A DNA stretch of 42,583 nt from Candidatus Omnitrophota bacterium (GTDB lineage: Bacteria; Omnitrophota; Gorgyraeia; 2-01-FULL-45-10; JBDRSA01): NCBI GenBank assembly GCA_043825275.1, contig JBDRSA010000025.1, positions 1-42,583 of the forward strand, in the 5' to 3' direction. Under the pieces are notes generated by a model. That model was not told where the DNA came from, searched no databases, and saw only the letters and a program-made list of their open reading frames with translations. Both the position numbers and the translations under genes were made by a program. Each line of letters opens with the position of its first letter. Position 1 is the first letter of the stretch. Below, piece after piece: positions 12,961 to 34,388 of the stretch.

Positions 12961-15900
12961 ATGATGAATAAGGAACAGACGGTAATAAACAGAACGATGA
13001 GAAGAATACAAAGGATCGTGTCGATGATACTGATCCCCGCATTCCTTTTGTCCAATTCCGTCTTCGCGGAGGTGCTTATAGAACGGGCCTCTGTCGCTAC
13101 CGCTGTTCCGTATTATATCTCGGCGCTTTTAGATGAACACAAGGACGATCTTAAGGATCTGGCGAGAGGCGTTACCCCGGTCATGGACCGGAACTTTGTG
13201 GATAGAAAAGAGGATTTCGAAAAGGCGTGGGACCTGATGTGCGCCGAACGCCTGGCGCTGAAGATCGTATCGAAGATCAAACAGGACGAAGACAGGGGCT
13301 CGATGGCCGACGCCGAGCGCTGGCTCATACGGCAGATAGAGGATCGGGCGGATGAATACGGCATGTCCGCCGAGCGGAAAGCGTTTCTCGTTGAGGCGAT
13401 CACGCGGGAGTTCCGCGGTGAAGGCGCCGATGAGGATGTGATCGACGCGAAGGAAATCTTTGAGACGAGACAGGTGGAAGATGGGGGGCAGGCCTCGAAG
13501 GGCATAGAGCATAGCGCAGATGCTAGTCACCAGGCACTAGGTATCAGTCGCCAGGAAGCAGATGACAGAGAACAGAAGACAGAGGACAGAGGACGGGATT
13601 ATCGCGAGTCGCCTACAGGCGGGAAAAGTCGCCAGACGCCAGTTGCCAGTTTCCAGGAAAAGCAAAAGATAAATAGAGAACGTCGAACGACGCACGAGAG
13701 CGAAGCGTCCGCCTCGGCGAACCGAAGGCGAGACGGGGAGCGAAGCCTCCCCGGAGGGGACGCACAACGAGACGGCCGTAAACCGTACACCGTAAACCGT
13801 ACACCGGAAGCACGCCATTCCCCCTCCGAAGACTCCGATGATCCCGCCGCGGAAGAACCGGATGAAGAGATGGGTGATTTCCTTGATAGTCTTGAAGTAC
13901 CTTTGCCGCAAGACCAAGATTTCCCCATCCGGATACTGTCGTCGAGTTTTATTAAAGAATGTGAATTGATCAGGGAATTCGGCTTAAAGGAAGAGACCGG
14001 CGCGTATATTGCGCTTTATAGATATAACGGTGAACCGATCGGCGACTTGAAAACCGGTGGAGAGTTCATTTTAAAAGCTTCGATCAGGCCCATGGCCGGA
14101 ATGAACGCGCTGATAGGGCCGACCGCGGGATTTCATTCAAAAATCGGGCCGTCTGAGAACGTACCGGATCTTTACGGCGTCATCGATTTCGGGATCGAAG
14201 GCCGCACTGTCAGCGGGCACAAACTCTATGAGACCGCTATCCTGAAAGAGTTTGTCGAAGGGCCGTCATTGCGCGAGTATGTGATGGCGATGAAGACCGA
14301 AAGAAGTGATTCGGCAACTGAACAGCAGTTTCTCGATCTTGTCACGAGTGTTTTGAGGGATTACCGGGATACGTACAGGATCAACGGTTGGATGAACGGT
14401 GATCTCGACTCAAGGGATATTGTGGTGGCCCGGGCGAGATCAGGCAGCGGCTCGCGAAACGTCTTCATTGATAACGGTACCGCGACCGAATATGGATCCG
14501 ACGATCCTGCCGCAATAGCGAGGAAGCGGGTTGTTAAGGCGCTCTACTGTAGTTTTAAGCGATTTATGAGGCTCTCTGAAAGAGAGCCCGCCGAATGGTG
14601 TCTACCGCGGGATGACGGGTATTCGCTTACCATTGCGCTCCTTGATTGCCTTGGGCTGATCGCCGATACCCCGGTTGATTTCCAGGAGAGCGGCCAGCAC
14701 TATATCGATGTTGTGGAAAGCAGGGTTCTCAGCGATATCCATTCTCCGCAGCTGATAGACCGACTCAAGAGTGTTGCGGCAATGAGAGAGCATGTCTTTA
14801 CGAGGATCGTCCGCGCGCATGAGAATAACGGACGGCTCGAGGAGCTGGCGCATGTGTTAAACCATTACAGAAAACGGTTTGAAGACGAGGATGTTTTCAA
14901 CGCGCTTCTCAGGGATGTCGAGCGCATCGCCCGGGGCGAGCCGTCACTGGGTCCCGACCGGGGCTTAGAGGGTTTTGGTGGCGCGATTGAGCGAAAGTCG
15001 CCAAGCGCGGATATTAGTTCAGAGTTCATAGTTCATAGTTCACAGATAACAGATAGCAAAGAGCAAGAATTAGAAGATGACCAGGCAGACGACCGTACAC
15101 CGAAAACCGAACACCGTGAACCGAAAGAACCCCGCCGCAGCTCCCCCAGCGGGGATGATAAAACAGAAGGGCCCGAACGGGAAGACTCTATCGACGCGAT
15201 ACGGGACGCCGATACGCTCTCAAATTATGTCGACGGCCTGATAGCGGATATTAACGATACACAAAAAGACGCTCAAATATCGTTCTCCGATATACTCGCC
15301 TCTCCCGAAGGATACAACGAAAGCTTTTTTGAGCCGCTATACGAAATTCTATTCAGAAAACTCTCGCGCGACTTTTCCGGCTCCGAGGAGTTTGTCGAAT
15401 ACTGCGGAAGGGCGATCGGGCAAAAAGGCGCTGATATATTGCGCGTTGAAATGAACGGAGAGAATTTACCGCTTATCGGGCGTATCGGCGGAATACGGCG
15501 GAATAATAACACAAAGAAGGCATCTATAGAATTGTACGGCTTTTTATTCTTCCTGCTGGCTCGCGAGCCAAAGAAGTATCTTGCCCGGGTATACGACGAG
15601 TTCATGAAGACCCGCCCCGCTGAAGATATAGCCCTCGGCAGAAGGGGTATCTCGTATCACGATAGAGGCGACAGCGTTGTCCATTTTTACACAAAAGGCG
15701 TCATCTTTGAAGGTATCGTAAAACCTGTTTATAAGAAATCGCTTATGCCGATCTATGAGCATGAAAAGACTGTTCTTGAGGACAGGACGGGTTCGGATAG
15801 CGCGAAGAAGATCGGGAGGGCGTTACAGTATTGGCAGACACAAGGGTATATGCCGGGAAATGAGCGCCTTCTCGAGAGGGTAAAGAATTTCTGGAAATCC

Positions 15901-18900
15901 ACGACCGTTGTGGAGCTCGACATGAGGACGCCACTTCTTTTTTCAGACCCCGATCATAATGTTGTCAGGAGCTTCCACGCGGGGAGAACAAGGCGTGTTT
16001 TGTTCTTTTCGAAGGCCTATCTCGACAGCTTAAGTATAGACAGCGAAGCCGACATGAAGGAACTCGCTTTCTGGCTGAGCTTTGGTCAGCGGTTTATCGA
16101 CATGAAAGATGAAATGGAGGCGAAGGGTTTCGATTCGAGACAGATAGAACAGGCGCGTTCGGCCCTGAGCCTGCTCTATTTCGAAGACGTATTTATTAAG
16201 TGCCAGGAAGACGCCAGTCTCATCGATCCGCTCTACATTAAAGACAGATGCAGACGTTATATGCGGCAGGACACGTTTATTAAGTATACGACCCTATTGC
16301 GGGAGACAATAGAAAAAGAGAAAGAGGCGGATGCGCTTCTAAGGCAGGCGGATAAGACGAAGGCGCAGGAACATTACGCGCTCGCATGGTTTCTATACGG
16401 CAAACTCCTTTATAAGTATGATGGGATGGGTCTGCACTCGGAAGCCGAAAAGGCATATCAGAATATGACATCGGCGACAAGGGAATGCCAGCTCCATAAC
16501 TGGGGCCTTCTTCCATACAGGGTCTACATGTTCGATACATTTACCGCGCTGCGTTTCGGAAAGTGGCCGGAATTTGTTGAAGGGCTCGAGACATTCTTGA
16601 CAGGAAAGGGGTATAAGAGGCGCATGTGGAGAGAGGAAGCCAATTTGTTGAGAAACTGTCTGTGCGGCCATGAAGGTATTTACAGGGATTTTCGGGAGGT
16701 CATCGAGCGCGTTATACATAGCCAGATGGACGCGGCGGATACGGAAGTCCTATCCGAGATAACTCCGCACGCCGAAAGGGCATTCGATCTTTTGAAGAGG
16801 TTCTACGAGGATGGAGGGCCGGAGCGCTGTCTGGAGATCGACACACTGCCGACTTTACCCGAAGGAAATAACACCGAACCAAAACCGGACGGCTCTTCAG
16901 ATAAAAAGCGCCGCTCGCCGAGCGGGGAGGAAGATAGCCGACAGTCCACAGTCCGTAGTCCGAAGATAGAAAAACAGGATCCTCGTGAGTCGCCTACAGG
17001 CGGGGATGATAGGTCAGGGTTCATAGTTCATAGTTCAAAGTTGCCGACAGAAAAACAGGATCTTCGTGACTCGCCAACAGGCGGGAAAAGTCGCCAGACG
17101 CCAGTTGCCAGTTTCCAGAAAAAGCAAAAGATAAATAGAGAACAACGAACGACGAACGAGAGCGAAGCGAAGCGAAGCCTCCCCGGAGGGGACGCACAAC
17201 GAGACGACCGTACACCGGAACGCCGCTCCCCCAGCGCTGACCGGCATGACTCCGCAGATGCGGTCGAGGCGGCCTCGGCGGCCCCGGACTATCGAGAGTG
17301 GCTTGACCGGAAGGTGCCTTCCGAGTGGCGCGACAGACTCACTCCGAAACAGCGGGAGTTTCTTACCGTTTATTACCAAACCGATAAGGTCCTCGAAACA
17401 AAAAAGATGTCGCTCTTTACGAAAGCGCTCCTTTCCCTGGGAGTCGCCGGCGCGCTCGGATTCCCGGTCTTCGTCGTCCCTTCAGCGAGTAGCGCGCTGA
17501 CCGTCGCGGGTCTCATCTTCTTCATGTTCGTATTTATCCCGACCCACGAAGCCGGTCATTACCTCGCGGCCCGCGCGGTAAACCGGGCGTCTTTGAGAAA
17601 AACCGGCCGCCCCGTATTCAGCTCGATACGCTACGCATGGGAGGGAACGTTCCCGCAGGTGCGGATCGAATTCGCCGATGAGTTCCGCCAACCGAAGGGA
17701 TTTATCGATGTCATCGAATGGGGGCCGACCGTGTCGCTCATCACGTCGGCTGCCGCCTTCGCGATAACCGGCCTTTCGATATTCTTCGGGTGGGATATCG
17801 TCAGCTACTTCTCCTCCCCCACGGCGTATCTAACATTCGCGATGTTCCTTTTTGAGAGCTTCTGGCGTTTCGGATACAGCAACGACGGATCGCTGAGCGC
17901 CCGCACGAATAAGATCTCGCGCGCCTTTAAAAAAGCGAAGCGCTCATACTCGTTCCTCGGTGAAGATCCCATCCACTGGGGTATTGAGGCGGAGGACTTC
18001 CTTATTGATGCCGGAGACGGGATCTACTGGGCGGTCCCCGAAGAGTCATGGAACGAGACGGACCTTCTGGCCGATCGGGTCAGGGTGCGGGCGCGCGAGA
18101 GCCTTCTCAGGAACAGGGACGTACTCTTCGGCATGGGGCAGCGGCGCCCGGACGGCGCGGCCATTCCCGACGAACCGCCGGAGAATGTCTCGCACATCCC
18201 CTTCCTCTCTGACACGGTACGGATGGATTCGATACGGTATCCGATGCCGTTCGAATTGTCGGGAGAACTGGTAAAGCCCGATCAGGGGGACCGTGAAGGA
18301 AAAAGCTCCTTCATCGTCCGCTCTGTTTTTAACCCTTCGGGGAGAAGGTACGCGCTCTACAAGGTAACGGATTTTCCGAAGGAGCTCCTGCATCGGTCCA
18401 AAGGCCCTGAGCCATCCGCAGGCGAAAGCGCGCGGCGATCGCCGAGCGGGGAGGAAATTAGTCCGGAGTCCGGAGCCCGGAGTCGGGAGAAAAAAGAAGA
18501 TGGATATCGGGCAAACGACGAGATACTAGATACTAGATACAAGATACAAAATCCCCGTACCTCCCCCAGCGCGGCCATTCCTCCCGACGCTGATCCGGCA
18601 TTCTTTGAAAGCAGCTCGCCGCCGTACTGGATGATGGGGAATGATCTGATAGCGAAAGAAACGAAGCGCTTAGCCGCCAAGCTTCTGGATCAGGCATCAG
18701 CCGAACGTGCGGGGCGCCCATGGAGTTATGAGGAGATCCAGAAGCTCCTTCAGACGCATCCGGAGATTACCACCAAGCTTCAGTTCGAGAAAGCAGAGTA
18801 TTACCATATTCCTGAGATTGCCGCGTACGCGAACCTTGCGCTTGATGAAGAGTCGCGTGCTTTTTACGATGAGGCCGAGCGCATCTTCAAAAAGATTGTT

Positions 18901-21900
18901 CATGCGCGGTCAGAAGAAGAGATCCTCTCCCTGGCGCGACACCTCAAGGAGATAAATCCGCGGATCGCGGTCGTTATTTTGAAATGGCTGGCAAGCACCA
19001 CTGAAATGCATGGGTCAAAGTATGCCGCTGAAGAGCGTGCCGCCCGGCGGTTCCTACGGCGGTTCGTCAATCTCTTCTTCGGTGAGTTGGGCGGCAGAGA
19101 AGCTATCAATGATTATCTGGTGATGGCTGCCAATATGGTCCAGAAAGCGCGTCGAGAGCGGGATCTTATGCCGGATGAAGTGGCGGTCGTTCCGGTATTG
19201 ACCGGTGGAGGTACGCTGAGGGATTTTGCCAACACAAGACTCTTCTTCTCCGTACACCGCGTGCGGCCGCTTTTGTTTACCAGGGTAATGGCACAGGCAT
19301 ACGGCGTTGAGGAAGTTGATGGACGCCGACGATTTACCAGGGAGGGTGCCGAAGCCGTTTGTGAATACCTGAAACTACAGGAGATCATCGATGACAGAAT
19401 TCGGCATATCGTCTTTTTGGATGTCGGCCAGCGAGGTACGATCAGAGAGCTCCTGACGCCGATCCTCGACAAATTGTCGATCACGTCCGACCTTCCGGTG
19501 CTCTATCACGGCAAATACGCCGAAGCAGATCGGCACCTGGCGCACGGCCTGAACGATGAGCCGGCATGGCGGCCGCGCGATGAAGAGCTTTTGTGGATGG
19601 CCTATATCCTCGATGATGGATTCGAAAAGAGTATCGATGTTTCTAACTTCGTCTTAGAAGAAAAGCCACGCGGGCGCCTCCCGTTCTTTAAGCTTACAAA
19701 CAGTCTGTGGTTCTATCGATTGGTGCAGGAGAGAACGCAGATCGCCGCATCGGGATTGCCGGTATATTCAAGAAATCTGTACGATACCTGGGATTATTAT
19801 AGAGACGAGGATGAGAATGATCCCGCGTTCCGTCACTCGCCGAGCGGGGACGACGACGCAGAGCGCAAAGCGCAAAGCCTCCGGCCCTTACGGGCCTTAG
19901 GCCCGGAGGGCGCAGAGCAAAACCTTGAAGCGCGCGAAAGCGCTGTTTCCCCTAGTGCTGCGCCCGACATGGAAAAAATAAACAAAGCGGTAAAATTTGC
20001 GATCGATATCCTGAAGAGAGATGAAGAAAAGAGAGCGCTGCGCAATACCTGCAAGCAGCACGCCCCACTTCTGTGTTATCTCTTGAATCGTATGGGTATT
20101 GATGCGGAGGTCTCCCTGGTTTATTACGACAACTTTATGTTAAGAGAGGTCCACTACTGCGTGAAGATCCCGGGCCAAACACCGATCTATGTTGACTCGT
20201 TGCCTGAGGCGCATACGCACAGGATCTCACGCGATCCCGGCGTAGGCGTTATTCTCAAACCGGGAGATCCCGACTATGAGTTATATGTCGACGGCGAGAA
20301 ATTAGCGGGCCAGTATAGCGGTGGTCTTGCGAATCTGACACCAGGCGCCCGGATGCTGTTCGGCGTGAAAGAGGCGGAGAAAGAGATCGACGCGTTCATT
20401 GCGCGACTTACCGGAAGATCTTCCGGCTCCGCAGCGGGCGAGGACGAACAACCGGCAGACGACCGTACCCCGGAAACCATACACCGTAAACCGGAAGAAC
20501 CACGCCGTTCTTCGAGCGGGAGCGATGCCGCAAGGCCGGATCGTGATAAAGCGCTTCCGGATGTCCCGGATGACCTTCTCGACCGGCTGCCTGAACGCGA
20601 AGCGCTTATTCAGATAATCCGGATGGTGCTCGACGGAAGAGCCAGGGGGCCAAGAAAATTATACGGGGATCAGGATCGCAGATTTAATGTGTTGCGCCTC
20701 TGGACATTAGAGGGGGCCGCATATCAGGATATCATAGGACAAGTAGATTTTACGTACGCGGCAGCTCGGGAACATAAGAGGCGGGCGATCATTAGTCTCG
20801 CGGATTGGTTGGCTCCTTATGGCGTAACCCGTCAAGAGATCAAGGAAGTATTGAAAAGTATCCAAAAACCACAATTCTTAACAATGAAACTTGGTGATTA
20901 TCGCGCCTGGCATGTCCATTATAGCAATTGGGTCGTCGGCGAGGCGGAGGCGCCCGATCAGATACAATTCAATAAAAACGATAAAGAAGCCTGGGGACAG
21001 ATACTCGCTTTGCTCCGAGAACTCCATATAGTAGAGCCTACGTTCGACGAAGGGACGATCATCCCGCGCAAAGATGAGCACGGTTACATCATCGAGATCA
21101 GAGATCGGAATGGCGAGGCCCGGCATCAATATCTGACATGCTTTATTACGGGCAAGATGCTGAATCCGGTTTCATCCTTCGGTATTGTTATGCGGGGTTC
21201 AAGACAGAGCGAATTACGTCTTTTATTGGCAGGGTACGGCCCCGCCGATCTTCTCCCGGCGCTCGGCGATGTTAAAAAGTCTGTGTTACATTTAAAAGGA
21301 GGTGATTATCAGAGAGTTAGGCTGCTGAAAACCCCTCAAGGCAGGTCTATATATGTTACATTGTCAAAACGGTACACCTCTGATCACATAAAACCCGAGA
21401 TCTCAGGTGAAAGCCTTGCCGATTCCGCAAAAACCCGTATTACACTTTATGATCCTGATACTAACGAACCTGTATCGGACGTGATCGTGTGGACAGACAG
21501 GAAAAATTGGGAATGGGAAGATCAGAGATCAGACAAATATATTGATCCATCAGAAAATGGATATATACAGTGGTCCGCCGGGCAATGGAGAAGGTATCTT
21601 GCCGGAAGCAGGAGGACTCCTCCCAGACAGGATAAGATCGACACATATCCTACACCAATACAAAGGTCACACAGAGCAACGTCGAGAGTCGTTCGTATGT
21701 TAGAAAATGAAATAGATCTTGGGTATGAAGATGAATGTCCTTATGAACAGGTAAAGCGGTGCGCGTTGAAGATACCGGGCGATGATAGGCGTTTCATGGG
21801 ATTGTGGGCCCCCGAAGTCGATCCGGCGACAACTCCTCCGCTGGTTGTCCTCAGGCTCACAGGTAAAACATTGATCAATACCCTTACTATTCCCGCGGAA

Positions 21901-24900
21901 TACGAGATCGTTACACACGAGACTCCGGTGGAAACTGCTGAAAAAGAACCTGCCCAAGAGACCGTTTTAGAAGGTCCCGGAAAAGAGGTGCCTCCGCCAG
22001 TGGGAAGGATTCTCAAAGAGGAAGCTCCGGAAGAAGCTGCCGGTGAAGAAAAAAGCGCTCAAGAGGCCGACGCAGAGGCCCCTGGAACAGCCGGTGACGA
22101 TCTCATACATGTATCTATCGGAAACGCGATCAGATTCGACGAAGATGAGATCGAGCAAGCGCGTAACTTGACAAGAAGGGTATCTTCAAAAAAACGTTTG
22201 GCTGCTCGAAGTTTATCTGCTCAGGAACAGGATATAGTTGATATGGTCTTGCAGGGCGCAAGCGCGTCAGGGTTGACAGATCTTTATCTTGCGGCCTGGT
22301 CGGATCTACTAAAGAGCGCCATGATAAAGCTCGTGACGACAGACCTTCGCGAGCTGCCCCAGGCGTACGCGAAATACCGGAAGCTTTTTAGCGGATCAGC
22401 CGGTGCCGTGGGTAAGAAAAAACCGAAAAAGAAAACCGGCAGGAAAAAGCGCCATTCCCCGAGCGGGGAGGAAGACAGTTCGGAGTTCGGAGTCGGGAGT
22501 TCGGAGACAAAAGTGCGCCTGTCACCAGAGCACCAGAGCGCCAGCAACCAGAAAGCGAGTCGCGAATCACCCAGCGGGAAAAACAGTTCAAGGTTCAAGG
22601 TTCAAGGTTCAGAGAGCGCAGAGAGCATAGAAGAGAAAACCGGCGAACCGGTGATCCGTCGCCTGCATCGCGCTTCGGATCATTCCCTGATTCGTCGCCT
22701 TCAACACGTCTCGAATCACCCCCGGACTTTTCGTGGGGGGATCTTTCGTGGGGCTAACCGGCGAACCGGCGAACTGGCAAACCGGAAAGCCGGTCAACCG
22801 AAACGCCGCTCCCCCAGCGGGGAAAGACTGATCATCCCCGATGAGTATCGATCGGTGGGGAGTGAAAAATTCAGGGAGATATTCGGAAAAGAATTCGGCG
22901 GTCTCGCCCCCGACGCCGAACAGCTGGCGAGCCTGCTCGACCGCTTGAATCCGGCCGTTTTCGATATTCATCGCTCCGTTTGCGACAACAATGGGAGAGA
23001 GATATACCCGTATTGGTGTCATCCGATGTCCAGGGTAGTAGCGCAGGTTCTTAAAGATCGAGGATTCGATGTTGCTTCTGGCTCTTCAATCGTCGATGCG
23101 CAGGAGTTTGGATTTAATGTAGTGGTTGTCCACCATATAATAATACTTCAACTCTCGCAGGGGAACGTTCTCCTTGATTACACCGCCGACCAGTATTATA
23201 AAGACGCTGACGGCAACTGGCTCCACATCGAGCCGGTGATCATGCCTTGCGCCGAAGCCGAACGGGGAGCATTTTATGGAAGTGTGGAGAAAGGCGCAGC
23301 GATGAGATTAGATGAGAGAGACAGAAAGCTGTATGAAGCGATAAATGATGCTCTCAGCGGGAGCGAGGATAGAGCAAGAGGCGAAACTCCACGCGAGTCG
23401 CCGAGCGGGGAGAAAAGCGGTTCAGGGTTCAATGTTCAAAGTTCAAAGTTGCCGACTGCCGGGCACAAACCGTTAACCGAATACCGTAAACCGGTGCGTG
23501 AATCCCCCAGCGGGGAAGAGAATAGACTGTCTTCCAGAAGAAAGGGGACACGGAAAGAAGAACTGGCGCAGCGAAGAGTAAAACCTCTTTCAGATGTGGT
23601 TATCTCGAATATTGATAAGGGGCCTGTGGTTGCCGAAAGTGAGCTCAGAGAGTTGGTGGAGAGTACAGAAAAATTCGGCGGGGATTGGCGGAATCGAATT
23701 GTCACCGCCATGGCAGACCCGGAATCGGTAACATTGCTTGCGCGGCGTCACGGAAGAATCGTCGGGTTCATAACAGGGGTTGAGCCGGATGAGAGCGACC
23801 GGGAGCTTATCGGAAAACGTAACGCGCATTACTTGCTTGGTATTGGCGTGCGGCCTGAAGAGCAGGATCAAAGGATCGCGACGGCGCTCTTTGCGCGGTA
23901 TACTAAGACGCTCAAGAGGCTGGGGAAATACGATTCTGTAGCGCTTCACACAAGAGATGATCGGATTTTTCGAATAATTGCCCGCTATCAGGACAGAGTC
24001 ATCCGCACGCGCCGGAAACATACAGATCGTGGTATGCAGATCGTTCTCTCGCTTGGAAGCGACGGTCCGGAGAAAGCCAAGTTGCAAGAAAGAAAAGCCC
24101 CGCTTCGCCGCAGGTCGCCGAGCGCGGAGGGGGATAGTCCGGAGTTGGTAGTCCGTAGCCCTGATCGAGAGTTTCTTGTAGATAAGAGAATCTCGGCTGA
24201 GAAAGAGATCTATGAGAGGTTCAGAAGAGGTGATAACAGTTTTATCGCGTTTTTCGATTTTGATCACTCAAGGCACTATTTTACGACTTTCGGTGAGATG
24301 AAAATGAATAGAATCTTAACGGGCGGGTTTTTGCGTGCGCTTGAATTTCTGGAAGGAGAAGGAGTACTAGTATGGCCACCTCTTGGATTTGGCTGTGAGG
24401 AGATCGGGCTCTTATTCCCGGAATCTATGGAAAAAGAGGAAGTGCTTTCACTGCTCGTCTCTGCGAAGGAAGAGATCGAGAAAACCACCTTTCCACTTAA
24501 AGGGACCGCCGTGCTTCAAAAGATCCAGAAGACTGTACCCCTTTTGGGCAAAGCGAGAAGTGAATCGAATCAAAGAGTGCAGCAGGCGTGGCTTGAGAAA
24601 GAGATGAGAGACTATTTCTCGCAAATGAAGCGATGGAAGAATAAATACGGTCGGAGGACTATTGTCGATCTCGATTTAGAGCCCCCAGTAGTCTATAAAA
24701 AAATAAGCCGCAATTCCCCCAGCGCGGAAAACGGTCCAAGGTCCAACGTCCAAGGTCCAAGGCCGCCGGAAGATAGCGGAGCGCCGAAAACCGTAGACCG
24801 TAAACCGGAACGCGGATCGCCTACAGGCGATGACAACAAGATACTAGATACTAGATACCAGATACGAGATCCTCGCCGCTCATTAAACGCTGACATTGAC

Positions 24901-25577: not shown

Positions 25578-25619
25578 TTGTCACTGACAACTGTCAACTG
25601 ACAACCGGCAACTAACAAG
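25578..25619. repeat. Six-unit heptamer array directly after the G2 stop
   Basis: ttgtcac tgacaac tgtcaac tgacaac cggcaac taacaag, starting 3 nt after the stop at 25573-25575. Confidence 0.75.
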
Positions 25620-25687
25620 AGGCCGGTAGACCGCCGCCATTGCCCTTGCCCCACAAGGAAGGCGGCCCTGCCGGCCTCTTATTTGTG
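25617..25687 (+). terminator. Long imperfect hairpin, terminator candidate for the giant-gene operon
   Basis: aagaggccgg (25617-25626) pairs perfectly with ccggcctctt (25671-25680). Inner pairs are ccgcc/ggcgg and ccttg/caagg. The T tract that follows is weak (atttgtg). Confidence 0.5.
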
Positions 25688-25832
25688 ACTTATTTGACAT
25701 AATAGGTCTGTCCTGTTTTGTCAAATAAGTCTATAACGCATGTTATCATGGCCAGTTGTGACTCATTGCCTATAACATAAGCTCGGTGACTTAGGCGACA
25801 AAACAGGACAGACCTATTATGTCGCCTAAGTT
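25685..25832. repeat. Twin 45-nt hairpin modules in inverted orientation with compensatory stem changes
   Basis: Hairpin 1: gacttatttgac (25687-25698), 21-nt loop, gtcaaataagtc (25720-25731). Hairpin 2: gacttaggcgac (25788-25799), 21-nt loop, gtcgcctaagtt (25821-25832). Loop 2 is the exact reverse complement of loop 1, giving a perfect 27-bp inverted repeat (25696-25722 / 25797-25823). Confidence 0.85.
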
Positions 25833-25911
25833 TGGTAGGAAAATGATCCTTGTGTCTGAGAGCCGGCATCTGACAGCTGGAAACTGATTCTCCTTGATTC
25901 GACGATGCCAT

Positions 25912-25940
25912 TTGTAGTATTCTATTTATGGTGATTATAG
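25912..25940 (+). promoter_or_regulatory. Weak sigma70-like promoter candidate for nagA-glmS
   Basis: TTGTAG (25912-25917), 17-nt spacer, TTATAG (25935-25940), 14 nt before the nagA ATG. No clear Shine-Dalgarno site. Confidence 0.25.
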
Positions 25941-25953
25941 CCTAAAGCCTATT

Positions 25954-27075: not shown

Positions 27076-27080
27076 AACGT

Positions 27081-28940
<1,860 letters not shown>

Positions 28941-28967
28941 TTAACTGGTTTACTGGTTAGCTGGTCT
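28941..28967. repeat. Octamer array directly after the glmS stop
   Basis: ttaactgg tttactgg ttagctgg, starting at the first nt after the stop (28938-28940) and running into MITE-like copy E2. Confidence 0.65.
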
Positions 28968-29112
28968 GTCATTGCGAGCCCCGCTTTGGCGGGGCGAAGC
29001 AATCTCCCGAGCGTAGCGAGGCGTTCTTTTAGTAATTCTGAACAGATTGCTTCGTCGCTCCCGGAGTTTACCCTGAACCCTACGTGGTTCAGGGGTCGCT
29101 TCTCGCAAAGAC
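28968..29112. repeat. MITE-like nested palindromic element, copy E2
   Basis: gtcattgcgag-ccccgctttggcgggg-cgaagcaatctcccgagcgtagcgaggcgttcttttagtaattctgaacagattgcttcgtcgc...ccctgaaccctacgtggttcagggg...ctcgcaaagac (degenerate right end). Confidence 0.8.
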
Positions 29113-29153
29113 GAGGCAAGTTTTACTCGATCAACATCAACCAAGAGTTTTGA

Positions 29154-29816
29154 ATGCCTGGAACATTATACATAGTAGCAACACCGATAGGAAATTTAAG
29201 CGACATAACCTTCCGCGCGGTTGAGACATTAAAGACCGCGGACCTGATCGCCTGTGAGGACACCCGCCACACGAAGATACTCCTCGATCGCTACTCGATC
29301 GACACGCCTACCGTAAGTTATTTTGAGCACAATAAGGTTAGGCGGGGCGAACAGTTGCTGCGAATGCTCAACGACGGCAAAAATATCGCTCTTGTTTCGG
29401 ACGCGGGAACACCCGGCATATCAGACCCGGGCTCGGCCATCATACGCTCCTGCATCGATCGCGGTATTCGGGTCATTCCTATTCCCGGGCCCTCGGCGCT
29501 CTTGACCGCCTTGGCCGCTTCGGGTAAGCCGACGCATAAGTTTGTCTACGAAGGGTTTCTTTCCAACAAGTCGACCGCGCGCAGAAAGCGGCTTGAGGTC
29601 CTGAAAACCGAGGAGAGGACCGTGGTCCTGTACGAATCTCCGCACCGGCTGCTCAAGCTCCTTGCGGATATCCTCGAGATCTATGGGGATGTGAAAATTG
29701 TCTGCGCCCGCGAGCTCACGAAGAAATTCGAGGAGATCAGGCGAGAGCCGGTTTCCGCGGCTTTAGAACATTTCAACTCAAACAAAGTGCGCGGCGAATT
29801 TATTATTATAATATAA
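29154..29816 (+). CDS. rsmI: 16S rRNA (cytidine1402-2'-O)-methyltransferase
   Basis: 220 aa. GTLYIVATPIGNLSDITFRAVETLKTADLIACEDTRHT and DAGTPGISDPG are characteristic of the RsmI / tetrapyrrole-methylase fold. Confidence 0.9.
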   Translation: MPGTLYIVATPIGNLSDITFRAVETLKTADLIACEDTRHTKILLDRYSIDTPTVSYFEHNKVRRGEQLLRMLNDGKNIALVSDAGTPGISDPGSAIIRSCIDRGIRVIPIPGPSALLTALAASGKPTHKFVYEGFLSNKSTARRKRLEVLKTEERTVVLYESPHRLLKLLADILEIYGDVKIVCARELTKKFEEIRREPVSAALEHFNSNKVRGEFIIII

Positions 29817-29857
29817 TATTACACAGATTCGCGCACCGTTCGCGCACTGTTTGCCAC

Positions 29858-29887
29858 TTGACAGTAGCGGGCCCTTTATGATATAGT
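29858..29887 (+). promoter_or_regulatory. Sigma70-like promoter of the pyr operon
   Basis: TTGACA (29858-29863), 18-nt spacer, TATAGT (29882-29887), with TG two nt upstream of the -10 element. Confidence 0.6.
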
Positions 29888-29906
29888 GGATCAATTGAAA
29901 CAACGA

Positions 29907-29939
29907 CCTTTTAATCCGGTCCCGAGAGGCTGGAAAAGG
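29907..29939 (+). promoter_or_regulatory. PyrR-binding loop (anti-antiterminator hairpin) in the pyr leader
   Basis: CCUUUU-AA-UCCGG-UCCCGAGAGG-CUGGA-AAAGG. The segment UCCCGAGAGGCU differs at one position from the PyrR box as I recall it (ARUCCAGAGAGGYU). The stem / internal-loop / stem layout matches, and pyrR is the first gene downstream. Confidence 0.7.
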
Positions 29940-29963
29940 AGATGCCCGAGATATGCCGAACAG

Positions 29964-30000
29964 ACCTTACTTGTCGACAAAACGATAGGTAGGGTTTTTT
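29964..30000 (+). terminator. Attenuator terminator of the pyr leader
   Basis: A 13-bp stem accttacttgtcg / cgataggtagggt (3 G-U pairs), loop acaaaa, followed by TTTTTT (29995-30000). Confidence 0.65.
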
Positions 30001-30005
30001 AATGA

Positions 30006-30058
30006 GCAGACGAGTTATATCGCAAGGCGGTATAACTCGTAGGCCGAAGGCCGTCTGC
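30006..30058 (+). other. Y-shaped structured element downstream of the attenuator
   Basis: The outer stem gcagac (30006-30011) / gtctgc (30053-30058) encloses the hairpin gagttata/tataactc (8 bp, 11-nt loop) and the hairpin ggcc-gaa-ggcc. Confidence 0.5.
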
Positions 30059-30112
30059 GAATTAATCCTGAGGAGCCGGCACGGTAGGCGTTGCGACGAA
30101 GGATCTAAAGGT

Positions 30113-30195
30113 AAAGAAAGCGAAGCGACGAGGGATCTCAACGAAGGAACAAAAAATCGAGATTGCTTCCCCCGCCAAGGCGGGGTCGCAATGAC
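30113..30195. repeat. MITE-like element, partial copy E3 (right half)
   Basis: cgaagcgacgagggatctcaacgaaggaacaaaaaatc-gagattgcttc-ccccgccaaggcgggg-tcgcaatgac. It ends 19 nt before the pyrR ATG. Confidence 0.7.
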
Positions 30196-30213
30196 AGACT
30201 ATGAGGAACACCC

Positions 30214-30759
30214 ATGAACCTGCGTGAAAAGACAAAAATACTGGACGCCGACGGCATAACGCGGTCGATCATGCGGATCGCGCATGAGATCCTGGAGAAG
30301 AACAAGAAGACCGAGCATCTCGTCATCGTCGGCATACGTAACCGCGGCGAATATATCGGCCGACGGATCGTCGACGCTATTAAGGAGATAGACGGTAAGA
30401 CGATCCCCTTCGGCATTCTCGATATCACGCTCTACCGGGACGATCTTACGGAGGTGGCGGAACAACCGGTCCTGAAACAGACGATGATCGATTTCGACAT
30501 TACCGGCAAACGCGTCATCCTGGTCGATGACGTGCTCTTTACAGGGCGGACGATCCGGTGCGCGATGGATGAATTGATCGACTTCGGGCGGCCGGCGGCG
30601 ATCCAGCTCGCCGTCCTGATCGACCGGGGGCACCGCGAGCTTCCGATCCGGGCCGACTATGTCGGCAAGAACGTGCCGACGGCGTTCAACGAAGCCGTTG
30701 AAGTTAAGCTCAAAGAGATCGACACTATCGATGAAGCGGTCATATGCGTGAAAGAGTAG
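30214..30759 (+). CDS. pyrR: Bifunctional pyrimidine operon regulator / uracil phosphoribosyltransferase
   Basis: 181 aa. [18 protein letters not shown] and the PRPP motif [19 protein letters not shown] are present. It sits first in the pyr operon behind a PyrR box. Confidence 0.9.
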
Positions 30760-31745
30760 CGAACAAACGGAATGGAAATTCAGCGAAGGGAAATCCCGTC
30801 CCATCGAGAAAGGTCCCGCTTTGGACGAAAAAAGATCTTTTGGGCCTCGAGTACCTGACGAAGGAAGAGATAACGCTCGTCCTCGATAACGCGCGTTCGT
30901 TCAAAGAAGTCCTCGCGCGGCCCTTGAGAAAAGTCCCCACCTTGCGCGGTAAGACCGTTGTGAACCTCTTCTACGAACCGTCGACGAGGACCCGTGTATC
31001 GTTCGAGCTCGCCGCGAAGCGTCTCTCCGCCGATGTTATCAACATCCTGAAAGAATCCTCGAGTATCCAGAAGGGCGAGACGCTTATTGACACCGGAAGA
31101 AATCTCGAGGCGCTCAAGACGGATATTATCGTGGTGCGCCACAACTGTTCGGGCGCGGCGATGATGCTCGCCCGTTCGGTCAATATCAGCGTCGTCAATG
31201 CCGGCGACGGCTGGCACGAACATCCGACGCAAGGATTGCTCGATATTTTTACCCTGCGTGAAAAGCGCGGCCGTATCGACGGGCTCAATGTCAGTATTAT
31301 CGGCGATATCGCGCACTCGCGTGTCGCGCGTTCGAATATATGGGGACTCACGAAGCTCGGCGCGAACGTCACCGTCTGCGCGCCCGAAAAATTGGTCCCG
31401 ACCGGCATCGAGAAGCTCGACGTGCGCGTCACCAATAGCGTCGACGAGGCGATCCGGGGCGCCGACGCGATCAACGTTCTCAGAATGCAGTTCGAGCGGG
31501 ATACCGCCGACGCGTTCCCTTCCAAGATAGAGTACTTCAAGGCCTTCGGCGTGACGGAAGCGCGCCTGGCGAAGGCGAAGAACGATATTATCGTTATGCA
31601 TCCCGGCCCGATCAACCGGGGCGTCGAGATCGCCGCCGAGGTCGCGGATAATTCGAATTCGGTAATTTTGGAACAAGTCACCAACGGTATCGCCGTGCGC
31701 ATGGCGGTGCTGTATTTAGTCGCGCACGCGAAAAAGAGTCAATAG
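30744..31745 (+). CDS. pyrB: Aspartate carbamoyltransferase catalytic subunit
   Basis: 333 aa. [13 protein letters not shown] and [10 protein letters not shown] signatures are present. It overlaps the end of pyrR by 16 nt and has a roughly 25-aa basic N-terminal extension relative to typical PyrB. Confidence 0.9.
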
Positions 31746-31807
31746 TCCACAGTCGACAATTGATAGTTTAAATTACGGTTTACGGTGTACGGTTAATGGT
31801 TTACGGT
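31746..31807. repeat. Heptamer arrays directly after the pyrB stop
   Basis: tccacag tcgacaa ttgatag at 31746-31766. ttacggt ttacggt gtacggt taatggt ttacggt at 31773-31807 (the reverse complement of the accgtaa family seen inside G1, G2 and pyrK). Confidence 0.8.
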
Positions 31808-31903
31808 CAAAAAATCGGAAAAGACAGCTAATGGGCTCAGGAGGAAATCAACGTTGAAATCACGCAGATTGCGCTACCGATCGTTTTTTAGTTTTTATTC
31901 CTT

Positions 31904-31959
31904 TACCGTACACCGTACACCGTTAACCATAAACCGTATTAGACTTTGGACTATCGACT
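31904..31959. repeat. Eight-unit heptamer array abutting the pyrC start codon
   Basis: taccgta caccgta caccgtt aaccata aaccgta ttagact ttggact atcgact, then ATG (31960). No Shine-Dalgarno-like purine run is visible. Confidence 0.8.
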
Positions 31960-33258
31960 ATGAGTAATTCCGATATTCTTATAAAGAACGGCAGAGTCGT
32001 TGATCCGGCCAACGGCCGGGACGGGGCGTTCGACGTGCTGATCACAGGAGGCCGGATCACGAAGGTCGAAAAGGGGATCACCAAGAAGAGCGCTGTCGTG
32101 ATCGACGCCTCCGGCATGATCGTAACGCCGGGCCTGATCGACATGCATGTCCATCTGCGAGAGCCCGGCAGGGAAGATATCGAAACGGTCCGCTCGGGTA
32201 CGCGCACCGCCGCCGCCGGCGGGATAACCTCGGTCTGCGCGATGCCCAACACGATGCCGCCGATCGATACCGGTCAGATGGTGCGTCATCTTGCCGGGAT
32301 CATCAAGAAAGACGCCGCGGCGAATGTCTATATCGTCGGCGCCGTCACGCGGCATCGTGAAGGCAGGGAGATCGTCGATATCGGATCGATCAAGCGGGAA
32401 GGCGCGATCGCGCTGTCCGACGACGGCAACTCCGTACAGGACGCGTCCGTGATGTCGGCGGCTCTCGAAAAAGCGCGCGATCAGGCGATGCTTATTATTT
32501 CCCACTGCGAAGATACGGCGATCTCGAAGAACGGCGTCGTGAACGAAGGGATCATCGCGACGAAGCTGGGTTTGCGGAGCATACCGAAGCGTTCCGAATA
32601 TGAGTTCGTCAAGCGGGATATCGAACTCGCGAAGAAGGCGAACGCCAGGATCCATATCGCGCACGTGAGCTGCAAAGAATCGGTCGAGATCATCCGCGCC
32701 GCCAAGAAGGACGGCGTCGCAGTCACCGCCGAGACCGCGCCGCACTATTTTACCCTGTATGACGAATACTGCTCAAAATACGATACTCGGACAAAGATGA
32801 ACCCGCCGCTCCGGTCGACTGATGACGTCAAGGCGGTCATCAGGGGGCTGGCCGATGGAACGATCGACGCGATCGCCTCCGATCACGCGCCGCACGGGAA
32901 ACACGAGAAGGAGATCGAGTTCGAATTCGCGGCGTTCGGTATCATCGGCCTCGAGACACTCCTGCCTTTGTCGATCTCCCAGCTTATTGACCATGAAGTC
33001 GTTACCTGGAGCCGGCTCGTCGAGCTCGTTGCGGCGAATCCGGCGAAGATACTGGGGCGCGTCAAAAAAGGGAGCCTTTCAGTCGGCAGCGACGCCGATA
33101 TTACGGTCATCGACCCGCATTGTCCGTGGGAATATCTGAAAGAAGATATTGTTTCTCAGAGCAAGAATTCACCGTTTATTGACTGGCAGATGTCAGCACG
33201 GGCGCGCGACGTGATCGTCGGGGGGAAGATCGTGCTTCGCAATAGTGCGTTGGTGTAA
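31960..33258 (+). CDS. pyrC: Dihydroorotase
   Basis: 432 aa. ILIKNGRVVDP...TPGLIDMHVHLREPG, then AIASDHAPH. Typical class I DHOase in pyr operon context. Confidence 0.9.
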   Translation: MSNSDILIKNGRVVDPANGRDGAFDVLITGGRITKVEKGITKKSAVVIDASGMIVTPGLIDMHVHLREPGREDIETVRSGTRTAAAGGITSVCAMPNTMPPIDTGQMVRHLAGIIKKDAAANVYIVGAVTRHREGREIVDIGSIKREGAIALSDDGNSVQDASVMSAALEKARDQAMLIISHCEDTAISKNGVVNEGIIATKLGLRSIPKRSEYEFVKRDIELAKKANARIHIAHVSCKESVEIIRAAKKDGVAVTAETAPHYFTLYDEYCSKYDTRTKMNPPLRSTDDVKAVIRGLADGTIDAIASDHAPHGKHEKEIEFEFAAFGIIGLETLLPLSISQLIDHEVVTWSRLVELVAANPAKILGRVKKGSLSVGSDADITVIDPHCPWEYLKEDIVSQSKNSPFIDWQMSARARDVIVGGKIVLRNSALV

Positions 33259-33305
33259 GGTTATTTGGTTTGTTGCGGTATAAGTTATCGAGCTAACTCC
33301 TGGAC

Positions 33306-33400
33306 GTCATTGCGAACCCCGGCGAAGTCGGGGTGAAGCAATCTCAGTCAGAATTACCAAAAAGCGAGATTGCTTCGTCGCTAGCGCTCCTCGCAATGAC
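33306..33400. repeat. MITE-like element, short copy E4
   Basis: gtcattgcgaa-ccccggcgaagtcgggg-tgaagcaatctc-agtcagaattaccaaaaagc-gagattgcttcg-tcgctagcgctc-ctcgcaatgac. Confidence 0.85.
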
Positions 33401-33422
33401 GAAGGGAGAGTAATAACAAAAT

Positions 33423-34388
33423 ATGAGTAACTCCATGAAGCAGATCAACGCGAAGATACTCAAGAACCAACAAGTCGGCGGTGATTACCGCAAGATGACC
33501 CTGGCGGCGCCGGCTATTGCCCGGAAGATCGCGCCGGGACAGTTTGTGCACGTTCTGTGTTCGAATTCCGCCGAACCGCTCCTCAGGAGGCCGTTCAGTA
33601 TGCATCGAGTAAGTCACCAGTCACCAGTCACCAGTCACCAGAAAAAGCGAAAAAATGAAAATTCCGGAACTATAGAAATACTTTATGAGATTGTGGGAAA
33701 AGGAACAGAGATCTTATCAAAAAAGAGATCCGGCGAATTTCTCGACATCATCGGTCCGCTCGGAAACGGGTTTTTTATACCGAAAACCGTTAACCGTAAA
33801 CCGGAAACCTCGATCTTGATCGCCGGCGGTATGGGTGTCGCGCCGCTCGTCGCGCTTGCGGAAGGATTAGTTCATAGTTCAAAGTTCATAGTTCATAGTA
33901 AAAAGAAGAAAAGAGAAGAAAATATTATCGTCCTGATCGGGGCGAAGACGAAAAACCATATTTTATGCGAGAAAGATTTTAAAAAGCTAGGCGCGAAAGT
34001 TCTTGTATCGACCGAGGATGGCTCGAAGGGGGGGAAAGGGCTTGTTACGACTCAGCTTGATCTTTCACTGTCAACTATGAACTATGAACTATCGACTATT
34101 TTCGCCTGCGGCCCCAACCCGATGCTTCAGGCGGTTTCGATGCTCGCCGCGAAGTACAATATCCGCTGTCAGGTATCGCTCGAAGGGCGGATGGCTTGCG
34201 GCGTCGGTGTTTGTTTAGGATGCCCGGTAAAGATTAAGTCCACAGTCGACAGTCCACAGTCGACAGAAAGAAAATTGAGAAAGCGCGATGTATCGGACGA
34301 CGGACGACGGACGACGGACGACGGATATATGATGGTCTGCAAAGACGGCCCGGTCTTTGACGCTGACCGCATCGACTGGGAGGAGTAG
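33423..34388 (+). CDS. pyrK: Dihydroorotate dehydrogenase electron-transfer (FAD / 2Fe-2S) subunit, carrying several in-frame repeat insertions
   Basis: 321 aa against about 255-260 aa for typical PyrK. The conserved core is present: PGQFVHV, LLRRPFS, GPLGNGF, IAGGMGVAPL, ACGPNPML, MACGVGVCLGC...VCKDGPVF. The extra segments coincide with the heptamer cassettes. Confidence 0.85.
   Translation: MSNSMKQINAKILKNQQVGGDYRKMTLAAPAIARKIAPGQFVHVLCSNSAEPLLRRPFSMHRVSHQSPVTSHQKKRKNENSGTIEILYEIVGKGTEILSKKRSGEFLDIIGPLGNGFFIPKTVNRKPETSILIAGGMGVAPLVALAEGLVHSSKFIVHSKKKKREENIIVLIGAKTKNHILCEKDFKKLGAKVLVSTEDGSKGGKGLVTTQLDLSLSTMNYELSTIFACGPNPMLQAVSMLAAKYNIRCQVSLEGRMACGVGVCLGCPVKIKSTVDSPQSTERKLRKRDVSDDGRRTTDDGYMMVCKDGPVFDADRIDWEE
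33612..33641 (+). repeat. 30-nt heptamer cassette inside pyrK
   Basis: agtcacc x4 (perfect) + ag; encodes SHQSPVTSHQ. Confidence 0.9.
33783..33809 (+). repeat. accgtaa-family array inside pyrK
   Basis: aaaaccgttaaccgtaaaccggaaacc; encodes KTVNRKPE. Confidence 0.7.
33869..33898 (+). repeat. 30-nt heptamer cassette inside pyrK
   Basis: agttcat agttcaa agttcat agttcat ag; encodes VHSSKFIVHS. The same family occurs in G2 at 15016 and 17011. Confidence 0.9.
34067..34101 (+). repeat. Heptamer array inside pyrK
   Basis: cactgtc aactatg aactatg aactatc gactatt. Confidence 0.75.
34237..34266 (+). repeat. 30-nt heptamer cassette inside the pyrK Fe-S loop
   Basis: agtccac agtcgac agtccac agtcgac ag; encodes STVDSPQST. 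Confidence 0.9.
34294..34325 (+). repeat. Perfect heptamer array inside the pyrK Fe-S loop
   Basis: cggacga x4 + cgga; encodes SDDGRRTTDDG. Confidence 0.9.

Follow-up and report, generated by a model that had tools for sequence, protein, structure and literature searches.

Tandem heptanucleotide arrays, in frame and stop-patched, inside pyrK and two giant genes of an Omnitrophota bacterium

Why should tandem arrays with a period of seven nucleotides lie, in frame, inside the gene of a conserved enzyme? The question is raised by a 42,583-nt stretch of contig JBDRSA010000025.1 (assembly GCA_043825275.1, Candidatus Omnitrophota bacterium, forward strand), hereafter the window, in which such arrays of about 30 nt occur in pyrK, in two giant genes (G1 and G2) and in the spacers between genes. 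The arrays are DNA-level, fast-changing and self-homogenising, and they exchange sequence locally in either orientation; in genes they survive only in frame, with stop codons patched, where the protein tolerates about ten extra residues. We give roughly an even chance to the interpretation that they are DNA-level, self-homogenising repeats of the class known as short tandemly repeated repetitive (STRR) sequences or long simple sequence repeats (LSSR), spread by slippage and template switching under selection for in-frame, stop-free copies.

Under one scoring rule applied to the window, 27 period-7 arrays were counted as against 0.03 per dinucleotide-preserving shuffle, an excess of about 900-fold which confirms the enrichment that the initial annotation of this DNA had asked to be checked. 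With the same rule 18 arrays were found at period 14 (the same arrays as at period 7), 4 at period 8, and 0-2 at each of the other periods from 3 to 15. A curated set comprises 36 arrays, 30 of which lie in frame inside coding sequences, bearing out the frame neutrality that had been proposed. The eight 30-nt arrays of the layout (AGNNNNN)x4-AG were found where they had been reported (33612, 33869, 34237, 13627, 15016, 17089, 18460 and 22477), as were their close relatives (17011, 22585, 23419 and 24733) and the further units ACCGTAA, AGATACT, CGGACGA, ACAGAGG and the octamers AAACCAGC and GGCGAACC.

The 30-nt size class of the initial annotation is real as a length class, but it extends over 30-32 nt (about 4.3-4.6 units) and is not strictly 30. 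In a survey of 1.2 Mb, comprising the window and 80 loci, the period-7 arrays of coding sequences showed a length peak at 29-33 nt (11 arrays of 30 nt, 7 of 31 and 11 of 32), and periods 5, 6 and 8-11 a monotonic decay from the shortest length with no peak; the 29-34-nt class held 40 of the 87 arrays in coding sequences against 12 of the 57 intergenic ones. The IMG/VR collection, scanned with AGTYNNN x4 AG and not filtered for coding, yielded at least 120 loci with 305 period-7 arrays, many of them in inverted pairs 20-60 nt apart, and length peaks near 26, 31 and 38 nt (25-27, 30-33 and 38-39), that is, n units plus 3-5 nt. Much of the 30-nt length is explained by frame selection, but not the whole of it, because the peak near 31 nt is also present in this coding-unfiltered set. 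Octamer arrays have total lengths similar to those of the heptamer arrays.

A universal unit consensus is ruled out by the 67 distinct units found among the 87 arrays in coding sequences. The units come from a small set peculiar to each genome, which is reused in unrelated genes and spacers. In the window about eight unit families recur across G1, G2, pyrK and the spacers: ACCGTAA is found at 9-10 sites in three genes and one spacer, and the AGTCACC arrays of G1, G2 and pyrK share 96% identity. Arrays of the AGTY type are followed on the 3' side by an A-rich tract (51% A against a background of 27%) and preceded by purines, flanks which the other array types lack.

The units are read in all three frames, and perfect consensus units would create 16 in-frame stop codons in the 30 arrays that lie within coding sequences of the window. 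All 16 have been removed, by means of 17 of the 77 unit variants; ACCGTAA, for instance, is read with TAC, TTA or GAA, and in AGTTCAT the TAG is changed to AAG, GAG or CAG. Since stops are patched throughout, the ideal unit must be set by something other than coding. Likewise, the arrays are to be seen as DNA-level objects, because selection at the protein level cannot yield a 7-nt period.

The six arrays of pyrK fall at five variable positions of the orthologue alignment. The window PyrK is longer than most orthologues at site 1 (16 amino acids), site 3 (about 12-13) and site 5 (about 28), and at sites 2 and 4 the array occupies a loop of about the usual length. Insertions relative to orthologues are seen notably at site 1 and over part of site 5. 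In an AlphaFold model of the protein, with a mean predicted local distance difference test (pLDDT) score of 79, sites 1, 2, 3 and 5 correspond to coil or low-pLDDT segments (residues 61-78, 110-124, 149-163 and 256-294) and site 4 to the end of a helix and the start of a strand. Among 109 Omnitrophota-type PyrK homologues, the peptide signature of an array (identity at residues i and i+7, with at least two of five matches) was detected at site 4 in 85, at site 2 in 65 and at site 3 in 63, as against 6 for control segments. The peptides themselves differ by lineage, reading LSTINYELSTI, LSTIDYRLSTI, LNAKRYPLNA or LRTTNDERRTT at site 4 and VHSSKFIVHS, AYSVERIAYR or VHGPRSMVHG at site 3. What is conserved at these sites is a 7-nt period at a fixed position; the sequence is not conserved.

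Arrays in pyrK are also present in metagenome-assembled genomes labelled Methylomirabilota (L015; loci of relatives carry the prefix L), Deltaproteobacteria (L032, L071) and others, and related arrays in genomes labelled Methylomirabilota, Desulfobacterota and Nitrospirota. Over all 141 pyrK genes the density is 0.50 arrays/kb (55 arrays), rising to 2.9 in the 23 array-bearing genes; at the same loci it is 0.03 in pyrD, 0.02 in pyrC and 0 in pyrB, pyrF, pyrE, pyrR and glmS, which makes pyrK a hot spot 15- to 100-fold above the neighbouring pyr genes. A weaker second hot spot is found in three genomes at a relative position of about 0.42 in pyrD, which encodes the partner subunit of PyrK, or in a pyrD-sized open reading frame (ORF) adjoining pyrK. 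An apparent stop in the pyrK of L007 proved to be merely the terminal stop codon.

A concerted pattern is observed throughout, units being alike within an array and different between homologous arrays, both in the G2 arrays that follow the RxSPSG motif described below and at the pyrK sites across lineages. By small steps the units form a series, AGTCGCC, AGTCACC, AGTCCAC, AGTCCGG, AGTTCGG, AGTTCAT, GGTTCAA and GGTCCAA. Arrays also cluster, 93 of them having a neighbour within 500 nt as against 41 +/- 7 expected, and among pairs no more than 500 nt apart at least six of the seven unit bases are in common in 13% in direct and 12% in inverted orientation, about 8-fold more than between arrays of different loci (1.7% and 1.4%). 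Sites 2 and 4 of the L003 pyrK are identical (31 of 31 nt), L015 has three near-identical array copies (29 of 30), and three sites of L089 carry perfect 31-nt arrays of GCT[A/C/T]CAC.

An inverted relationship is found between pyrK sites 3 and 4 of the window (33868-33903 and 34063-34098), which match each other as reverse complements with 83% identity over 36 nt and could form a stem of about 30 bp; the two also pair with each other in the minimum-free-energy fold (z = -3.6). The duplex is worth -20 to -35 kcal/mol in the window, L002, L044, L162 and L164, as against -9.8 for non-cognate pairs, and four different unit pairs are used. No such pairing is seen in L007, L035, L089, L091 and L032, and with five of the eleven genomes for which DNA is available lacking it a strictly conserved stem is ruled out. 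Of 26 homologues whose units were deduced from the peptides, 13 have complementary units at the two sites and 2 have the same unit in direct orientation; for non-cognate sites, complementarity amounts to 12%.

Recent change was followed in an Omnitrophica WOR_2 and a Desantisbacteria allele cluster, with seven aligned full-length members in one cluster and nine in the other. WOR_2 alleles with flanks of 99.6-99.8% identity differ almost exclusively in their arrays, and always in frame. Site 1 shows a 3-nt indel, and site 3 is an octamer array, (GTCACCAC)x4, in L285 and L287 and a heptamer array, (GTCACAG)x4GT, in L286. An instant rewriting of site 3 between L285 and L286 was considered and rejected, given six synonymous changes in the next 21 nt; this synonymous patch suggests recombination from a diverged lineage. 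At site 4 of L287 (about 1355-1371) the interior of the (ATCCCGT)x4 array of L285 and L286 is replaced by a sequence with the perfect palindrome CCTGCCGGCAGG, with a net gain of 3 nt. Furthermore, a 78-nt in-frame insertion after codon 3 of pyrK, flanked by AAATC direct repeats and containing an AAATCCA-like periodic stretch and a palindromic core, TCCCGAcaaaaaTCGGGATCCCGAttttaTCGGGA, is present in L285 (3009-3086) and L287 and absent in L286. In neither cluster, at 97-100% identity, was a 7-nt allelic variant found at an array; the variation consists of 3-nt indels, substitutions and replacement.

In the linkers of G1 and G2, the peptide motif R-x-S-P-[ST]-[GA]-[DE] occurs 27 times, and in 12 cases an AGTY array begins 24-27 nt past the start of the motif. 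The motif was also considered as a translated hairpin (TCCCC-N4-GGGGA), a possibility rejected on the grounds that cognate halves pair at 3.89 of 5 positions against 3.87 when shuffled (p = 0.51), and it is treated here as a peptide or sequence repeat. A 115-nt segment of G2 is duplicated at 91% identity (13593-13707 and 17055-17169) and contains the motif, an AGTCGCC array and the A-rich tract; linker modules therefore duplicate as blocks.

Outside genes, arrays had been described as starting 0-6 nt after stop codons, which applies to the genes for the tetratricopeptide repeat (TPR) protein, G1 and G2 (6, 5 and 3 nt), but not to glmS, where the array starts at -1 nt; at the pyrB stop only a two-unit AGTCCAC/AGTCGAC stretch lies at about +1 and the main array starts at +27. 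The array abutting the pyrC start is confirmed, 31905-31959 being two arrays (ACCGTAA x4.9 and NNNGACT x3) with the ATG at 31960. In a survey of 161 loci, 20 of the 50 intergenic arrays had an ORF stop no more than 30 nt upstream, as against 13% on random placement, so that the suspected bias towards stop codons holds. The RNA of the pyrB-pyrC spacer (31740-31965) folds at -68.6 kcal/mol (z = -5.3), with mirrored arrays as the arms. The loop of this hairpin (31840-31880) carries AGGAGG followed by TTG, and the pyrC ATG has no obvious Shine-Dalgarno sequence upstream; the AGGAGG-TTG might reflect a leader ORF or a start site under regulation. Terminator-like and promoter-like sites around the arrays did not exceed shuffle expectation, and the window gave no Rfam match at the gathering threshold.

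How might such arrays arise and spread? If slippage and template switching are at work, the engine would be slipped-strand and template-switch synthesis in a 7-nt register, with jumps to neighbouring arrays of either strand included. Switching would homogenise units and would make inverted partners complementary without selection; existing arrays would also give rise to new ones in their vicinity, and the clusters in pyrK and G2 would be accounted for in this way. The encoded peptides would then be by-products, and the 30-nt class of coding sequences would mainly represent the shortest viable in-frame state, four units plus the start of a fifth. Among the origins initially proposed, templated insertion fits best, the units of neighbours being alike in either orientation, and the mobile cassette that was named with it is treated below as a rival; the absorption of stop-proximal signals into ORFs is hinted at by the G1-G2 junction, where an AGTY array with its A-rich tract resembles the copies inside coding sequences. 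Several observations weigh against slippage and template switching as the full account. Simple slippage predicts monotonic lengths, and the peaks observed (about 26, 31 and 38 nt; 30-32 nt in coding sequences) imply that the copy number is set by some factor. The same loops of pyrK have kept arrays over about 50% protein divergence, which is long for neutral microsatellites, and loop tolerance alone may not suffice to account for 0.50 arrays/kb in pyrK against 0.00-0.03 in its neighbours. In addition, intergenic arrays are about 3-fold enriched directly after stops, and the dispersal of the stop-containing ACCGTAA over 9-10 sites looks more like that of a cassette than like local birth.

It is possible, if on the unlikely side, that the arrays are instead cis-acting nucleic-acid elements, recognised by a protein (of cold-shock, S1 or KH type) that reads single-stranded DNA (ssDNA) or RNA and advances about 7 nt with each subunit or domain, or contributing the two sides of long stems. 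Their role would be to adjust the coupling of translation or the stability or processing of mRNA, in pyrK as well as at operon junctions, and the copies inside genes would be functional and under selection. A copy number peaked at about 4-5 cores, the enrichment right after stops together with the array at the pyrC ATG, the fixed positions of pyrK sites 2-4 under turnover of their units and the strength of the pyrK hot spot are all consistent with this, as are the complementarity of sites 3 and 4 through four different unit pairs, with its place in the minimum-free-energy fold, and the array-built pyrB-pyrC hairpin. In Nostoc, deletion of heptamer repeats altered reporter expression and a binding partner was proposed (bioRxiv 10.1101/2022.06.06.494920), and MacGregor (PMC4679880) suggested S1, cold-shock proteins (Csp) or CsrA as readers. 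Nevertheless, the diversity of units leaves no common recognition sequence, the five genomes listed above lack site 3:site 4 pairing, and the direct-orientation arrays of L003, L015, L089 and one of the two allele clusters cannot pair. The arrays of G2, about 20 in all, have no partners, the window matches no Rfam family, and template switching also yields complementarity. Quite unlikely, in our estimation, is a mobile origin, in which miniature cassettes of about 30 nt, some with an A-rich tail, would be copy-pasted in trans by a transposase, integrase or reverse transcriptase from a genome-specific set of templates, and only in-frame landings in loops would survive. The reuse of genome-specific units in unrelated genes (ACCGTAA, AGTCACC), the occurrence of stop-containing units in coding sequences despite their cost, a size class that is constant for 7- and 8-nt units, the A-rich tract after AGTY arrays and the polymorphic small in-frame insertions in relatives, such as that of 78 nt, argue for them, but neither target-site duplications nor defined ends were found for the arrays themselves, no candidate enzyme gene is found in the window, arrays at orthologous positions look inherited with units that change by small steps, and in L035 native HRVS codons form part of the site 1 array, a point in favour of local expansion.

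It is very improbable that these are contingency loci, at which the addition or removal of a 7-nt unit would turn a gene on or off, the example being NeuO in Escherichia coli K1. Phase variation of neuO by heptanucleotide repeats inside the coding sequence is described in PMC13001214 and PMC8653822, and a phylum that is possibly predatory or parasitic would offer plausible targets in its giant proteins of surface type; however, the arrays have only about four units and are interrupted, a single housekeeping gene holds up to six of them and G2 about 20, and the aligned full-length alleles (seven and nine) are all open, with array lengths that differ by whole codons and never by 7 nt in either direction, so that phase variation is effectively excluded. 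The probability that chance, faulty assembly or protein-level repetition produced the arrays is negligible: apart from the source being a metagenome assembly nothing speaks for it, and it is refuted by the excess over shuffles, by the allele data and by the same phenomenon in independent assemblies from many studies, the reading frames being all intact and seven not being a multiple of three. Finally, we consider it unlikely that a dedicated, possibly enzyme-driven process installs and rewrites such cassettes in transcribed DNA (periodic, about 30 nt long and made of four 7- or 8-nt units from genome-specific sets), and that they are retained at fixed loop positions of housekeeping genes such as pyrK through action at the RNA or ssDNA level, either as arms of long-range stems or as landing sites for a reader moving in 7-nt steps, both within genes and at operon junctions; if true, several candidate phyla would share a class of cis-elements, so far unrecognised, that lies within coding sequence.

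Table 1. Arrays, genes and other repeats of the window, with pyrD-type arrays of relatives
Feature	Positions	Strand	Remarks
TPR gene	51-1400	+	
G1	1833-12896	+	giant gene, 3687 aa
G2	about 12961-25575	+	giant gene, about 4200 aa
Amidohydrolase, glmS and methylase genes		+	after G2
Operon pyrR-pyrB-pyrC-pyrK-(orfX)-pyrD-pyrF-pyrE		+	
pyrK	33423-34388	+	six arrays
V-type ATPase genes		+	last in block
GGTGYGA array	1407-1437	+	period 7/14; past TPR stop
Octamer array AAACCAGC x3.6	2395-2423	+	G1; in frame
Degenerate AGCGGAT array	2451-2494	+	G1; two potential in-frame TAG patched
AGTCACC array	12098-12126	+	G1 C-terminal linker; immediately 3' of RSSPSGD motif
ACCGTAA array	12157-12188	+	G1; in-frame TAA patched
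TGTCAGT/TGCCAGT array	12902-12929	+	past G1 stop; then A-rich leader of G2
ACAGAGG array	13565-13594	+	G2; 30 nt
AGTCGCC-type array	13627-13656	+	G2; 30 nt; inside duplicated 115-nt segment
ACCGTAA array	13776-13806	+	G2
AGTTCAT array	15016-15045	+	G2; 30 nt; both in-frame TAG changed to GAG/CAG
ACCGAAA/ACCGTAC array	15092-15126	+	G2
AGTCCAC/AGTCCGT array	16942-16966	+	G2; three units
AGTTCAT-type array	17011-17042	+	G2
AGTCGCC-type array	17089-17118	+	G2; 30 nt; copy of 13627 array
GAACGAC array	17140-17159	+	G2
AGTCCGG array	18460-18489	+	G2; 30 nt
AGATACT array	18521-18549	+	G2; in-frame TAG patched
CGCAAAG array	19857-19878	+	G2
AGTTCGG array	22477-22506	+	G2; 30 nt
AGTTCAA/GGTTCAA array	22585-22614	+	G2
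Octamer array GGCGAACC x4.2	22752-22785	+	G2
GGTTCAA array	23419-23450	+	G2
AAACCGT array	23467-23493	+	G2; ACCGTAA family
Degenerate AGTCCGG array	24136-24163	+	G2
GGTCCAA array	24733-24762	+	G2; 30 nt
CCGTAAA array	24784-24807	+	G2
AGATACT array	24839-24870	+	G2; within 22-27-aa segment missing from G1 paralogue
TGTCAAC/TGACAAC array	25579-25618	+	past G2 stop
Octamer array GTTAACTG	28940-28965	+	overlaps last base of glmS stop; adjoins GTCATTGCGAG element
pyrB-pyrC hairpin, 5' arm	31746-31815	-	AGTCCAC/AGTCGAC stretch, then TTACGGT x5 (complement of ACCGTAA)
pyrB-pyrC hairpin, 3' arm	31897-31959	+	ACCGTAA x4.9, then NNNGACT x3, up to pyrC ATG
pyrK site 1	33612-33641	+	perfect (AGTCACC)x4AG and A-rich tail; coil in model
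pyrK site 2	33779-33809	+	ACCGTAA-type array; two in-frame TAA patched
pyrK site 3	33868-33903	+	TAGTTCA array; in-frame TAG changed to AAG; pairs with site 4
pyrK site 4	34063-34099	-	AACTATG array; reverse complement of site 3; directly 5' of conserved ACGP motif
pyrK site 5a	34237-34266	+	AGTCCAC/AGTCGAC array, 30 nt; in Fe-S domain loop
pyrK site 5b	34294-34325	+	perfect CGGACGA x4.6 array
R-x-S-P-[ST]-[GA]-[DE] motif, examples	2439, 4161, 12075, 13603, 16909, 18433, 22450, 24709		G1/G2
Second dispersed repeat family	1487-1629, 28968-29053, 30161-30195, 33306-33400, 36021-36230, 37617-37731, 41940-42065		
pyrD-type arrays at about 0.42	L035 10390-10421; L089 4612-4642; L095 5693-5728		

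The genes of the window form a single block, all co-oriented on the + strand (Table 1), and the same gene order is found in L162. The nearest relatives of its pyrD and pyrK are Omnitrophota metagenome-assembled genomes, some with a Planctomycetia label, at 50-63% protein identity. In the collections searched there was no close relative for a presence/absence comparison, the top pyrK match having 53% identity, and a metagenome scan for relatives returned only sequences of 32-45% identity, few of them with arrays. Between pyrK and pyrD lies orfX (34392-34973; 193 aa, one predicted membrane helix, no Pfam match); the two genes adjoin or overlap in most relatives, and in L164 a 104-aa ORF separates them. 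Homology between G1 and G2 is confined to a C-terminal domain (about 290 aa, 38% identical) and a signal-like stretch at the N-terminus, and Pfam matches across both genes (1833-25575) are nearly nil (DUF7790, GHMP kinase N and GNAT).

The spacers also carry repeats of another kind. A second dispersed family, of about 115-145 nt with nested inverted repeats, is present in nearly every spacer of the window; its elements have the layout GTCATTGCGAGG...GAAGCAATC...GATTGCTTC...CCTCGCAATGAC, and GTCATTGCGAGS is matched 14 times as against 0.44 expected. Two stop-proximal arrays lie directly upstream of such an element, 28940-28965 at a distance of 2 nt and 1407-1437 at about 50 nt. Downstream of G2, a 44-nt inverted pair (25688-25731 and 25788-25831, 86% complementary, 56 nt apart) has arms that are each themselves a hairpin, and another hairpin is found at 25611-25686.

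With these arrays the heptanucleotide class extends to uncultivated phyla and to the coding sequence of a conserved enzyme, where coding constraint makes the rules of the arrays readable: units change together, exchange in either orientation, number about four copies and have their stops patched. The pyrK of Omnitrophota accordingly offers a natural system for separating mutational from functional explanations, and the arrays illustrate how repeats at the DNA level can give rise to loops in proteins and to the linkers of giant ones. On the practical side, alignment, gene calling and homology searching in metagenome-assembled genomes are all distorted by such arrays.

It had been stated initially that no described element class matches these arrays; this was mistaken, since tandem heptanucleotide repeats have been described as STRR and LSSR. 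To our knowledge, such repeats have been known since 1990 without a function or mechanism having been established. The STRR units of Calothrix, Nostoc and Anabaena, which we take to be CCCCAGT, TTGGTCA and CAACAGT, would be rotations of AGTCCCC, GGTCATT and AGTCAAC and hence of the AGTC/GGTC family found here. Elhai and co-workers reportedly described, in 2008, mobile repeats of 21-27 nt in Nostoc, often within heptamer arrays. Known examples, according to PMC4679880 and PMC4692102, include the STRR of Calothrix and Nostoc, LSSR5-11 (Mrazek 2007), GGGAATC in Xanthomonas and TAACTGA in Beggiatoaceae; heptanucleotide repeats are the most abundant long simple sequence repeat in most genomes, and polymerase slippage was proposed as their origin (Mrazek 2007, as related in PMC4679880). 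Rehm et al. (PMC4692102) noted an over-representation of heptamers in Xanthomonas and Nostoc and the presence of inverted pairs, and remarked that detailed studies were lacking. The arrays of the window resemble STRR and LSSR in having tandem 7-nt units, several families per genome and many dispersed loci, in being short and of few units with frequent inverted pairs close to gene ends, and in a non-monotonic length distribution with no excess of short precursors (peaks at 29-33 nt). AGTY arrays of this kind, often in inverted pairs, are also abundant in IMG/VR contigs. The known repeats are mainly intergenic, whereas here 30 of 36 arrays lie in coding sequences, including that of a conserved enzyme, their loop positions are kept across a phylum, and the host is Omnitrophota-like. 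The TAACTGA direct repeats of marine Beggiatoaceae, cyanobacteria and Bacteroidetes (MacGregor 2015, PMC4679880) likewise form heptamer arrays of 2-6 copies adjoining start and stop codons, with a few copies inside ORFs, mostly at protein ends, and a suspected horizontal spread, and they have a unit similar to that of the CAACTGA/TTAACTGG arrays found here at 25579 and 28940. They differ in that one unit dominates per genome and its forward orientation gives stops in all frames, in contrast to the many units, mostly ORF-internal arrays and patched stops described here.

The (AAGACTC)n repeat of NeuO in E. coli K1 is also a 7-nt tandem repeat in a coding sequence, read in all three frames with only some lengths in frame, but it is one long, perfect on/off array of variable copy number, whereas here many short interrupted arrays show no variation in unit number. 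The initial annotation was right to set the arrays apart from CRISPR (short palindromic repeats that are clustered and regularly interspaced), repetitive extragenic palindromes (REP) and bacterial interspersed mosaic elements (BIME), Rickettsia palindromic elements (RPE) and miniature inverted-repeat transposable elements (MITE), as they fail the defining tests of each. CRISPR consist of 24-48-nt repeats with unique spacers, as opposed to contiguous 7-mers without spacers. MITE have terminal inverted repeats and target-site duplications, neither of which is seen for the arrays; a MITE-like appearance belongs to the 78-nt insert of L285 and to the GTCATTGCGAG elements of the window, which are distinct from the arrays. 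REP and their paired form, REPIN, have in common with the arrays a unit length of about 30 nt, the frequent occurrence of inverted pairs (10-70 nt apart), spacer hairpins and a genome-specific family; each REP, however, is an extragenic imperfect palindrome with a GTAG/CGTC head that depends on a REP-associated tyrosine transposase (RAYT), whereas the arrays are mostly intragenic direct repeats without self-complementarity, of which only pairs are complementary, and no RAYT gene is present in the 42.6-kb window. RPE, like the arrays, are selfish DNA in frame at surface positions of conserved proteins, but they are palindromic elements of 100-150 nt with a conserved sequence and no tandem structure, as compared with about 30 nt of tandem, variable sequence. 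On every defining feature tested except the mainly intergenic location, the arrays are thus heptanucleotide repeats of the STRR/LSSR class. What is new is their setting, as position-conserved, in-frame arrays in a housekeeping enzyme and in giant-protein linkers, a location inside conserved genes that had not previously been described; in effect, as in-frame selfish DNA in loops, they resemble RPE, and in their paired geometry they resemble REPIN.

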